The notes under the pieces were generated by a model. The model did not search any database and was not told the origin of the DNA. It worked only from the letters and a program-made list of their open reading frames with translations. This document shows, piece by piece, positions 24,839 to 26,827 of a DNA stretch of 32,000 nt. The translations under genes were made by a program, and so were the position numbers. Within the stretch, counting starts at the first letter, position 1; every line of letters begins with the position of its first letter. Origin of the DNA: Pyrodictium delaneyi (GTDB lineage: Archaea; Thermoproteota; Thermoprotei_A; Sulfolobales; Pyrodictiaceae); the NCBI RefSeq assembly GCF_001412615.1, contig NZ_CP013011.1, positions 750,001 to 782,000 on the forward strand, read 5' to 3'.

Positions 24839-26827
24839 ATGCAAAAACCCTTAGCCAAGATTGTAGTCTTTTGGGTAATAGCACTCTTCCTCCTTCCCAG
24901 CATAGCACCCCTAGCAAGAGCAGCAACCTACAGCTGGGGCGAAGAGATCAGCCTCTCAGGTGTACAGCTAACAACAGAGTCTAAGGACTGTGTAGAGTGC
25001 CACATGCGTGCTACACCCTTCATAGTATACGACTGGTATAAGAGCAAGCACCGCATGGTCGGCGTAGGCTGCTACGAGTGTCACAGTGCTAAGCCCGGAA
25101 CAAGGCCCGACGTCTACGAGCACTACGGCTACTACATAACAACCCTAGTGACGCCCAAGCAGTGTGGCCGCTGCCACCCCGCAATAGCCGAGGAGTTCCA
25201 GAAGAGCGTCCACGCGTTCGCCGGAGTACACGCCTACGTGCTGAAGGAGGAGCCAGCCTACTGGATGATCCTAGCGAAGCAGTTTGGCTGGGACGAGCAC
25301 TTCAAGGTGCCAGCCGAGTATATCGAGACGGAGTGGGTACCTAAGATAGTGCGTGACTTCGTCGGCGATCAGAATTACGGTAAAGTCGTGCTAGAAGAGG
25401 ATCCAACCAACGCTATAATCCCGTACAACCCGCTTGGCCTAAGTATTGACAACTACGTTGCCCAGAAGGCCCTCTACATCTGGGGTATACGCGGCTGTCT
25501 AGGATGCCACGGCGTACGTATGGACGTCAAGGACGCGTTTGCCTTCCCGAGTCTAGACGAGCTAATGCAGTACATGAAGGAGGGCAAGGCTCCCGAGAAG
25601 GTAGTGTATGACCCGGCGTTCATGCACAACCACGGTATCGGCCGCGTGAACCCTGACGGCAGTCTAGGCAGCTGTGAGGCATGCCACCCGTATCACGGCT
25701 TCAGCGTAAAGATAGCCAGGAAGGGCGCCTACCAGGCATGTGGCCGCTGCCACACGGGACCAGACCATCCGAACGACGAGCAGTGGAGTAAGAGCGTACA
25801 CGGCGCCATATTCTGGGGCGAGGCCGAGGACTGGGACTGGGACAAGCCTGTCAACAACTGGATGCCAGGCCGCGACTACAGGGCACCCACATGTGTAACC
25901 TGCCACATGGCTGCAGTGTTCAACGAGCGTGGCGAGGTCAAGTATGCTAGCAGCCACGACGTAGCCATAATCAGCAAGTTCAAGCTAGGCAAGTGGGTAT
26001 ACACTCTACCGCGTGTAGCTGGCCTGCCAGATTTCGCAATACCGACAGCCACAGCGACCCAGGCACCTGTATTCAAGAGCCCGACAACAGGCGACACGAT
26101 AACACTAGTCTACCCAGAGCCCGACTGGAAGGCACGCAGACAGAGAGCAATTGACATGTGTGCCCAGTGCCACACCAAGGAGTACGCGGCGGCATGGTTG
26201 AAGACCTACGACTGGATGATCATACTAGTAGACTACATGAGAGACGAGTACGTACTAACCGTAGCCAACATGCTGAAGGCAAAGGGTCTATTCACACCAA
26301 TGGACGAGTGGATGGTGAGAAACCTAGGTGCTATGGCCAATAGGCCCACTAAGATGTCTGCAGCACACTTCGGCCCCGACTTCACCTGGTGGGAGGGCAT
26401 AATGCACTTCGCTGAGAAGATAGAGGAGTGGCTAATCGATGTATACGAGAGGCCTGCTGTAGCCAAGAAGGCGCCAGAGATACGCGAGAAGATCGAAGAG
26501 ATACTGCCATGGTTCAAGGAGCAGTGGGAGGGCGAGGGCAGCACTGGCACAGTACACAGCCTTGCAGAGGTGAAGACAGCTATCGCTAAGGCCGTCGAGG
26601 CGCCGAGCATAGAGGCCTATGCTCAGAAGGTAGAGACCCTAGAACCGCCAGCAAAGCCGCTAGTAGCCAAGGCGCCGGTGAAGACCCTAGGTGAGGTCAG
26701 CGAGTTCAGCCTAACACTGCCAGGCAGCGATGCTAGCCGCGAGGTGCCGGTAGCAGTATTCGCGGTGTTCCCGGCAGCACCTCTACTACTAGTCTTCGTA
26801 TCCAGAAAGCGCGCTGTAGCAGCATAA
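24839..26827 (+). CDS. Octahaem c-type cytochrome of the hydroxylamine oxidoreductase (HAO) family, membrane-anchored
   Basis: Eight CXXCH motifs (CVECH, CYECH, CGRCH, CLGCH, CEACH, CGRCH, CVTCH, CAQCH). Several blocks are collinear with Nitrosomonas HAO (see findings). It has a signal peptide (...LARA|AT) and a C-terminal stalk plus TM anchor (VAVFAVFPAAPLLLVFVSRKR). Confidence 0.9.
   Translation: MQKPLAKIVVFWVIALFLLPSIAPLARAATYSWGEEISLSGVQLTTESKDCVECHMRATPFIVYDWYKSKHRMVGVGCYECHSAKPGTRPDVYEHYGYYITTLVTPKQCGRCHPAIAEEFQKSVHAFAGVHAYVLKEEPAYWMILAKQFGWDEHFKVPAEYIETEWVPKIVRDFVGDQNYGKVVLEEDPTNAIIPYNPLGLSIDNYVAQKALYIWGIRGCLGCHGVRMDVKDAFAFPSLDELMQYMKEGKAPEKVVYDPAFMHNHGIGRVNPDGSLGSCEACHPYHGFSVKIARKGAYQACGRCHTGPDHPNDEQWSKSVHGAIFWGEAEDWDWDKPVNNWMPGRDYRAPTCVTCHMAAVFNERGEVKYASSHDVAIISKFKLGKWVYTLPRVAGLPDFAIPTATATQAPVFKSPTTGDTITLVYPEPDWKARRQRAIDMCAQCHTKEYAAAWLKTYDWMIILVDYMRDEYVLTVANMLKAKGLFTPMDEWMVRNLGAMANRPTKMSAAHFGPDFTWWEGIMHFAEKIEEWLIDVYERPAVAKKAPEIREKIEEILPWFKEQWEGEGSTGTVHSLAEVKTAIAKAVEAPSIEAYAQKVETLEPPAKPLVAKAPVKTLGEVSEFSLTLPGSDASREVPVAVFAVFPAAPLLLVFVSRKRAVAA

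Follow-up and report, generated by a model that had tools for sequence, protein, structure and literature searches.

A cross-link-free homologue of hydroxylamine oxidoreductase in Pyrodictium delaneyi with a candidate role in Fe(III) oxide respiration

A 32,000-nucleotide stretch of the Pyrodictium delaneyi genome (contig NZ_CP013011.1, positions 750,001 to 782,000, forward strand; G+C content 53%, matching that of the genome), referred to below as the window, was analyzed with respect to the gene Pyrde_0784, which encodes an octahaem cytochrome c of the hydroxylamine oxidoreductase (HAO) family. The position held in oxidative HAOs by the tyrosine that is cross-linked to the catalytic haem is occupied in this protein by tryptophan, and its placement in the family without the tyrosine cross-link is held with near certainty. 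Considered together with published proteomic work, the protein is read, at a probability of roughly 55%, as a cross-link-free homologue of the 'reductive' branch of the family acting in the chain of Fe(III) oxide respiration.

The gene is an intact open reading frame (ORF) whose product is 100% identical to P. delaneyi Pyrde_0784, annotated as 'hypothetical protein'. Reference proteins used throughout are NeHAO (1FGJ/4FAS in the Protein Data Bank, PDB), KsHOX (4N4J) and hydrazine dehydrogenase (HDH, 6HIF) as oxidative enzymes, and Kustc0458/HAOr of Kuenenia stuttgartiensis (6H5L) and IhOCC of Ignicoccus hospitalis (4QO5) as cross-link-free ones. The parts of the gene are as follows, in window coordinates with amino acid positions (aa); haem sites were assigned by motif and homologue alignment.

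24839-26827 (+), HAO-family octahaem cytochrome c gene (Pyrde_0784), 662 aa, intact ORF
24839-24925 (+), N-terminal signal or hydrophobic segment, aa 1-29, with presumed cleavage between APLARA and AT (hydropathy over 1-29; AlphaFold2 (AF2) helix 3-29)
24989-25003 (+), haem 1 CxxCH, CVECH, aa 51-55, invariant in the homologue alignment
25070-25084 (+), haem 2 CxxCH, CYECH, aa 78-82
25163-25177 (+), haem 3 CxxCH, CGRCH, aa 109-113
25496-25510 (+), haem 4 CxxCH, CLGCH, aa 220-224, fourth motif in the conserved order
25673-25687 (+), haem 5 CxxCH, CEACH, aa 279-283
25739-25753 (+), haem 6 CxxCH, CGRCH, aa 301-305
25763-25768 (+), Asp309-His310, counterpart of the NeHAO catalytic Asp267-His268 by alignment
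25892-25906 (+), haem 7 CxxCH, CVTCH, aa 352-356
26159-26173 (+), haem 8 CxxCH, CAQCH, aa 441-445
26366-26368 (+), His510, the 'AH' anchor common to oxidative HAOs and Kustc0458, invariant in a 19-member clade
26381-26398 (+), FTWWEG, aa 515-520, loop-to-helix segment homologous to the NeHAO WTYTEG cross-link motif by alignment
26387-26389 (+), Trp517 (TGG), position of the cross-linking tyrosine (two multiple alignments and a gapless pairwise match)
26531-26737 (+), Ala/Pro/Glu/Lys-rich low-confidence linker, aa 565-633 (AF2 per-residue confidence, pLDDT, 39-63 over residues 561-660)
26738-26809 (+), membrane anchor near the C terminus, aa 634-657, with the basic tail SRKRAVAA behind it (hydropathy)

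The preliminary description, made from the sequence alone, had taken the product for an HAO-family octahaem cytochrome, and database searches bear this out. The PF13447 (Multi-haem_cyto) model matched with 66 bits against a cutoff of 21.9, and the NCBIfam hydrazine dehydrogenase equivalog NF052343 gave 62.2 bits, far under its cutoff of 900. Eight CxxCH motifs begin at aa 51, 78, 109, 220, 279, 301, 352 and 441 in conserved order and spacing, and their columns are invariant across the 120 nearest homologues. From what is known of the family, haem 4 would be the five-coordinate catalytic haem, to which the tyrosine is cross-linked in oxidative HAOs. The top match in a PDB sequence search was IhOCC (3e-47), followed by 6H5L, 6T5E, KsHOX, HDH and NeHAO; a profile built from the 120 nearest homologues likewise placed IhOCC first (7e-108), then 6H5L, NeHAO, KsHOX and HDH. 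The AF2 model (mean pLDDT 80.8, predicted TM-score 0.79) has helices at 447-481, 487-508 and 513-536, possible counterparts of the three long C-terminal helices that make the HAO homotrimer interface, and FTWWEG sits at the start of the last of these (block-mean pLDDT 87-96). Global superposition was poor: 4QO5 and 6H5L were the sole significant Foldseek matches, at TM-scores of 0.27-0.34 and a root-mean-square deviation of ~20 A, and on these values the model was rejected for residue-level statements on W517 and haem 4. One transmembrane segment in the protein was noted by Kashyap and Holden (2021; PMC8105010).

The segment of interest, nt 26381-26398 (TTCACCTGGTGGGAGGGC), reads Phe515 (TTC), Thr516 (ACC), Trp517 (TGG), Trp518 (TGG), Glu519 (GAG) and Gly520 (GGC). 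It had been compared in the preliminary description with a segment of NeHAO, AHVNPGGWTYTEGW, and the tryptophan at nt 26387-26389 proposed as the replacement of the cross-linking tyrosine. That segment is correct to the letter, being residues 458-471 of 1FGJ/4FAS; its tyrosine is Y467, the haem-cross-linking residue. Single-sequence phmmer searches against PDB produced no alignment with an oxidative HAO that reached FTWWEG, and as these fell short, the family profile and a set of fetched oxidative relatives were used. Relatives were fetched with fragments of NeHAO, HDH and KsHOX as seeds; the resulting set lacked NeHAO itself (best match 74% identity) and contained sequences of Nitrosomonas, Nitrosospira/comammox, methanotroph and anammox type. 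Alignments were made with MAFFT L-INS-i (55 sequences) and MAFFT auto (182 sequences). The corresponding loops are:

Nitrosomonas type, AHVNPGGWTYTEGW
Nitrosospira/comammox type, AHQYPGYTYTVGW
Methanotroph type, HANPGGFTYTEGW
Anammox type, AHMSMYNQTYGNG and AHFAWYNATYGLG

All of these oxidative loop types share T-Y-x-x-G. The Pyrde_0784 loop, AHFGPDFTWWEGI, matches the comammox-type loop AHQYPGYTYTVGW without gaps, with A-H, P, T and G identical and the tyrosine falling on W517, and in both MAFFT alignments the Y467 column is likewise W517. In the 182-sequence alignment this column holds tyrosine in 57 of the 62 oxidative-seeded sequences. In a KsHOX-like sequence the tyrosine of this column is residue 451, in agreement with Tyr451 of KsHOX. 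Among the 120 nearest homologues of Pyrde_0784 the column is occupied by His (44), Trp (40), Gln (32), Phe (2) or Ala (2) and by Tyr in none. A multiple alignment with oxidative and tyrosine-less HAOs, the check that the preliminary description had itself called for, thus places no tyrosine of Pyrde_0784 at the cross-link column. All members of the 19-member clade formed by Pyrodictiaceae and a bacterial sister group have W517, W518 and H510. The segments of the two cross-link-free structures were taken from their PDB sequences: that of Kustc0458, AHAQQDVSWWWG, aligns with Pyrde_0784 without gaps and has Trp at the tyrosine position, and that of IhOCC, AMNGQDWTTFKRGW, aligns with NeHAO without gaps and has Phe there.

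The further statement that anchoring on either the AH or the EG leads to W517 holds in part. The NeHAO loop carries one extra residue (GG), and in the profile alignment anchoring on 'AH' alone gives W518; the residue is still tryptophan. On the alignments, W517 (nt 26387-26389) is the best-supported equivalent of the tyrosine, and the alternative, W518, is also a tryptophan. A sequence scan found no tyrosine in residues 472-535, that is, within ~18 residues on either side of W517. As tryptophan replaces the tyrosine and no other tyrosine is nearby, the known route to the Tyr-haem P460 chromophore and to the covalent trimer is closed.

The catalytic pair, by comparison, is kept. D309-H310 align with D267-H268 of NeHAO; D309 is present in all 120 nearest homologues and H310 in 110 of them, and both are invariant in the 19-member clade. 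IhOCC has Asp-Val opposite aa 309-310, against Asp-His in NeHAO, Kustc0458, epsilon-Hao-like proteins and Pyrde_0784, and by the Asp-His criterion the Pyrodictium protein stands nearer to the bacterial enzymes than to the sole archaeal structure. The pocket looks maintained, which would favor a catalytic haem 4 over a pure electron carrier. Column 510 is His in 62 of 62 sequences of the oxidative set and Met in 99 of the 120 nearest homologues of Pyrde_0784; His510 was considered as a seventh distal haem ligand and dropped, Met being found there in most homologues and in IhOCC. Residues 506 and 510 (nt 26354-26368) show an apparent i/i+4 swap: the Pyrde_0784 clade has Met506 and His510, and most epsilon-Hao-like homologues have His506 and Met510. 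The former pattern is like the AH found in oxidative HAOs and in Kustc0458; in IhOCC, too, residue 510 is Met. The swap might reflect an axial ligand that has moved or been exchanged along one face of the helix.

The literature on epsilon-Hao, HAOr and IhOCC supports the statement of the preliminary description that tyrosine-less HAO homologues act reductively. Epsilon-Haos, which lack the tyrosine, reduce nitrite and hydroxylamine in vitro, and IhOCC is cited as capable of nitrite reduction. The crystal structure of Kustc0458/HAOr is without cross-link, the protein shows no P460 band and is non-covalent on denaturing gels; with methyl viologen it reduces nitrite to NO, and NO and hydroxylamine to ammonium, and it carries out essentially no oxidation of hydroxylamine or hydrazine. 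Tyrosine-less HAOs are therefore not necessarily ammonium-forming, as had been implied, HAOr making NO instead. The tyrosine-less state is regarded in the literature as reductive and ancestral, and a 2025 phylogenetic study inferred the reductive non-Tyr form, often with His at the key site, for the majority of HAO-like proteins other than those of anammox bacteria and nitrifiers. Cross-link-free HAOs are the majority form of the family and probably its ancestral form. Since this is the default, probably ancestral state outside nitrifiers and anammox bacteria, the absence of the tyrosine from Pyrde_0784 is ordinary. A reductive, electron-output direction of Pyrde_0784 is accordingly considered quite probable on comparison with these proteins.

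Indications of function are found in published work on the host. In Kashyap and Holden 2021 (PMC8105010), Pyrde_0784 was the sole cytochrome found exclusively in the haem-stained band of ferrihydrite-grown cells, and by proteomics it was ~60-fold more abundant on ferrihydrite than on nitrate (log2 fold change 5.93, adjusted P 0.002; normalised intensities 138, 201, 275 and 170 on ferrihydrite, and 0, 3.5, 10.9 and 31.9 on nitrate). The same study found that P. delaneyi requires direct mineral contact, and proposed a quinol-oxidising 'Mcc' complex, Pyrde_0784-0787, feeding Fe(III)-reducing molybdoenzymes. The protein, for which a mature holoprotein of ~76 kDa is predicted, lay in a broad 140-kDa haem-stained band (PMC8105010, Fig. 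2). This band may represent a sodium dodecyl sulfate-resistant oligomer or complex, or glycosylation; as evidence of a covalent oligomer it was rejected, the gel having been unboiled and non-reducing. The words 'hydroxylamine' and 'Ignicoccus' are absent from the text of PMC8105010, and the relationship to HAO thus apparently went unrecognised there.

From its ferrihydrite-linked production and the cytochrome and membrane protein genes beside it, Pyrde_0784 is proposed to have an electron-output role in Fe(III) oxide respiration. Under this proposal the catalytic domain would be exported and held at the outer face of the cytoplasmic membrane by a predicted tether, the ~70-residue flexible linker with the C-terminal helix, and the protein would serve as the electron-output module of the Mcc membrane cytochrome chain, as its terminal or penultimate reductase. 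Haem 4 would be an ordinary five-coordinate c-type haem facing Asp309-His310, as in Kustc0458/HAOr, IhOCC and epsilon-Hao; electrons would leave toward the substrate, and hydroxylamine or hydrazine would not be oxidised. Reduction of nitrite, NO or hydroxylamine would probably be kept as an in-vitro, side or detoxifying activity and would not constitute respiratory nitrate ammonification. Taken by itself, the link to Fe(III) respiration is given an even chance. The wider idea that a hyperthermophilic crenarchaeon has taken an HAO-clade octahaem enzyme, without the P460 cross-link but with its pocket intact, into service as its ferrihydrite-specific cytochrome is put forward tentatively, with somewhat less than even confidence.

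The neighbouring genes of the window, all on the + strand, are as follows.

18385-19569 (+), Pyrde_0780, thioredoxin fused to a DsbD/CcdA-like membrane domain, for cytochrome c maturation (domain searches)
19601-22588 (+), Pyrde_0781, 995-aa CcmF/NrfE-like haem lyase (PF01578, TIGR00353)
22730-23713 (+), Pyrde_0782, 327 aa, secreted, weakly DUF553/transglutaminase-like (sub-cutoff Pfam match, E 0.01)
23733-24464 (+), Pyrde_0783, 243 aa, signal peptide and C-terminal anchor, without family match, directly 5' of the HAO-like gene
27000-28898 (+), Pyrde_0785, 632 aa, polytopic membrane protein whose C-terminal domain is extracytoplasmic, without family match
28962-30272 (+), Pyrde_0786, 436-aa multihaem cytochrome c with 13 CxxCH and one CxxxCH and an N-terminal anchor
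30327-31073 (+), Pyrde_0787, 248 aa, integral membrane protein in which several His are membrane-embedded

Pyrde_0787 is possibly a quinol-interacting subunit. Searches of PDB, Pfam and NCBIfam returned nothing informative for Pyrde_0782, 0783, 0785 and 0787. This gene context, composed of maturation genes, a 13-haem cytochrome and unclassified membrane proteins, is not tied to nitrogen-oxide metabolism. Every orthologue of Pyrde_0784 found at more than 45% identity came from a genome of Pyrodictium, Hyperthermus, Pyrodictiaceae, Desulfurococcales or Thermoproteota, and the triad of Pyrde_0782, Pyrde_0783 and the HAO-like gene is kept in every related Pyrodictiaceae/Desulfurococcales contig examined (loci L001, L004, L006-L009 and L014). 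The published 'Mcc' partners downstream are less conserved in their synteny with the HAO-like gene than Pyrde_0782 and 0783 are, and these two proteins may be its real functional partners. In L001, L007 and L008 the pair of CcmF-like and thioredoxin-DsbD genes is also found close to the orthologue; in L027, L042 and L066 it is close to HAO-like genes that are more distant relatives.

Several points weigh against the proposed role in Fe(III) oxide respiration. It is a candidate role only, and differential abundance is a correlation that could reflect repression by nitrate or a general up-regulation of cytochromes on iron. In PMC8105010 the reduction of Fe(III) itself is ascribed by preference to the molybdopterin enzymes, and Mcc is given the part of a relay. 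Pyrde_0785-0787 (Mcc) adjoin the HAO-like gene only in close relatives (L004, L006); in the other related contigs their counterparts are either missing or separated from it by a few kb. That the Asp-His pocket is strictly conserved speaks for a small-molecule substrate and against pure electron transfer. The placement of W517 beside haem 4, the AF2 superposition being poor, is drawn from sequence homology.

The explanation given in the preliminary description was that the protein converts nitrite or hydroxylamine to ammonium, in keeping with an anaerobic or nitrate-ammonifying hyperthermophile. Such an enzyme of epsilon-Hao/IhOCC type, carrying out the six- or two-electron reduction in respiration or detoxification, would agree with the missing tyrosine and the Asp-His pocket, with the in-vitro activities of epsilon-Haos and the nitrite reduction cited for IhOCC, and with the cytochrome gene that Demey et al. 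named as the nearest to a nitrite reductase in P. delaneyi strain Hulk; by locus-tag arithmetic from ccmF (Pdsh_01745), that gene is probably the Pyrde_0784 orthologue, Pdsh_01730. The host is indeed a strictly anaerobic hyperthermophile that grows on H2 and is no ammonia oxidiser. It does not appear to be a nitrate ammonifier: Demey et al. (2017) report denitrification to N2 for the type strain, and for strain Hulk neither an obvious nitrite reductase nor any use of nitrite. Ammonification as the physiological role is contradicted by these reported end products and by the direction of regulation, the protein being ~60-fold lower in nitrate-grown cells; the ferrihydrite medium in which it was abundant contains no N-oxide. 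Moreover, no gene for a NapC/NrfH-type quinol dehydrogenase is adjacent, TIGR03153 giving weak, sub-threshold matches alone. Pyrolobus is a nitrate ammonifier of the family Pyrodictiaceae, and no Pyrolobus orthologue was seen among the named matches or GTDB loci, which is weak and pattern-limited evidence. We regard the ammonium-forming explanation as unlikely. Improbable to a greater degree is an HAOr-like nitrite reductase that forms NO and so supplies the nitrite-reductase step that is missing from denitrification in P. delaneyi. Pyrde_0784 and the NO-producing Kustc0458/HAOr have in common the Trp at the tyrosine position and the AH...WW motif; however, expression runs in the direction opposite to that of a denitrification enzyme, Trp at this column is frequent (40/120) among homologues that are not HAOr-like, identity to Kustc0458 is only ~30% over 207 residues, and no dihaem partner like Kustc0457 is encoded nearby.

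A slightly slimmer chance is given to a reductase that acts on some different inorganic substrate, such as polysulfide or a sulfur oxyanion, and is in general use among Pyrodictiaceae. Its orthologues are found in Pyrodictium, Hyperthermus and Desulfurococcales metagenome-assembled genomes, groups made up mostly of sulfur reducers; the source organism of IhOCC is an obligate sulfur reducer that is not known to respire nitrogen oxides; and the related octahaem enzymes MccA and OTR act on sulfur compounds. P. delaneyi Su06, however, reduces no sulfur compounds, and induction is ferrihydrite-specific in the sole available data set. Very nearly discounted is the view that the protein is still an oxidative P460-type enzyme in which a tyrosine from elsewhere in the fold, or Trp517 itself, is covalently bound to haem 4. 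Conserved tyrosines do occur elsewhere, Y369 and Y425 being shared by all of the 19-member clade, and the 140-kDa haem-stained band is ~2x the predicted 76 kDa; yet a gel run without boiling or reductant leaves the band size uninformative on covalent links, residues 472-535 offer no tyrosine, every oxidative relative uses the T-Y-x-x-G loop, Kustc0458 has Trp at the same place with neither cross-link nor P460 band, and the host is strictly anaerobic and grows on H2.

Some further features were noted around the gene and its homologues. In bacterial homologues of the sister clade (~37% identity, Caldithrix-like), a Porin_5 or porin-like gene lies directly upstream in L002 (6910-7986), L003 (2419-3495) and L010 (843-1889); the porin-cytochrome clue offered by L002 and L003 was rejected, as the remaining sister-clade loci do not generally show it. 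Directly downstream of the HAO-like gene, L012, L013 and L015 instead encode a conserved secreted protein of ~190 aa, and in none of the bacterial sister-clade loci examined is a NapC/NrfH-type gene adjacent. Elsewhere in the window, the region upstream of the Ccm genes encodes at 15509-17263 (+) another DUF553/transglutaminase-core protein, at 584 aa the larger of the two; in L001 an unannotated 584-aa gene, without Pfam match, stands beside a multihaem cytochrome gene. The - strand carries a glutamyl-tRNA reductase gene (hemA, the first step of haem synthesis) at 1219-2625, a KaiC-like ATPase gene at 8745-10292 and, next to it and a few kb from the cytochrome cluster, a type IV pilus/archaellum-like set with two T2SSF membrane proteins (10691-12538) and a T2SSE ATPase (12411-14030). 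Antisense and other-frame ORFs of 60-125 aa overlap the HAO-like gene, for example within 25664-26610 (-); they are without support and look like by-products of G+C-rich coding sequence.

Cross-link-free structures were already known from an archaeon (IhOCC) and with tryptophan at the tyrosine position (Kustc0458/HAOr). The present analysis adds the link between the 'novel' ferrihydrite-induced octahaem cytochrome Pyrde_0784 and the reductive-type HAO homologues with an Asp-His pocket. Through this link a protein that has been implicated in the iron respiration of a hyperthermophile gains a concrete biochemical hypothesis. Caution is also advised: a tyrosine-less HAO gene in a genome or metagenome is not always a marker of nitrite or hydroxylamine ammonification. 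If the Fe(III) respiration role is correct, Pyrde_0784 would bring the HAO/IhOCC clade into mineral Fe(III) respiration for the first time, a parallel to OcwA and OmhA of sister clades, and would hint at what the still unexplained IhOCC-type cytochromes do physiologically in archaea that do not respire nitrogen compounds.

Among known systems, IhOCC (Igni_0955-type) is the best PDB match of Pyrde_0784 by sequence, profile and fold. Both are crenarchaeal, membrane-associated octahaem cytochromes of the HAO family, and both lack the cross-link tyrosine. Identity is ~34% in partial alignments, IhOCC is absent from the 120 nearest database homologues of Pyrde_0784, and its Asp-Val and Met stand opposite the Asp-His and His510 of the Pyrodictium protein, which is longer by ~140 residues through insertions and the C-terminal linker and anchor. 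Kustc0458/HAOr, at the ~30% identity given above, is a cross-link-free HAO with the same AH-x6-W-W-x-G and with its catalytic pair in GPDHP, as in Pyrde_0784. HAOr is soluble in the anammoxosome, complexed with the dihaem Kustc0457, and supplies NO for anammox, whereas no such partner or pathway accompanies Pyrde_0784.

The bacterial 'reductive HAO' radiation of epsilon-Hao type has the same fold and haem order, ~30% identity over nearly the full catalytic domain and a conserved GPD[YF]T[HWQ]W[HE]G, again without the cross-link tyrosine; most of its members have His or Gln at 517 and Met at 510, and as a group they are shorter (430-540 aa), lack the C-terminal anchor and are set in a physiological context of bacterial nitrite and hydroxylamine handling. 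The oxidative HAO, HOX and HDH enzymes are homologous to Pyrde_0784 in the haem 5-8 core and share with it the AH anchor, T516, G520 and the Asp-His pair, but have Tyr in place of Trp at the 517 column, the P460 cross-link and covalent trimers. OcwA and OmhA, surface multihaem iron reductases of Gram-positive thermophiles, would resemble Pyrde_0784 in function and not in lineage. They belong to clade 3 of the common NrfA/ONR/HAO superfamily, with 9 or 11 haems, against HAO clade 1 and eight haems for Pyrde_0784, whose iron reduction is putative; recruited to iron reduction, they have kept penta-coordinate haems and in-vitro nitrite reductase activity.

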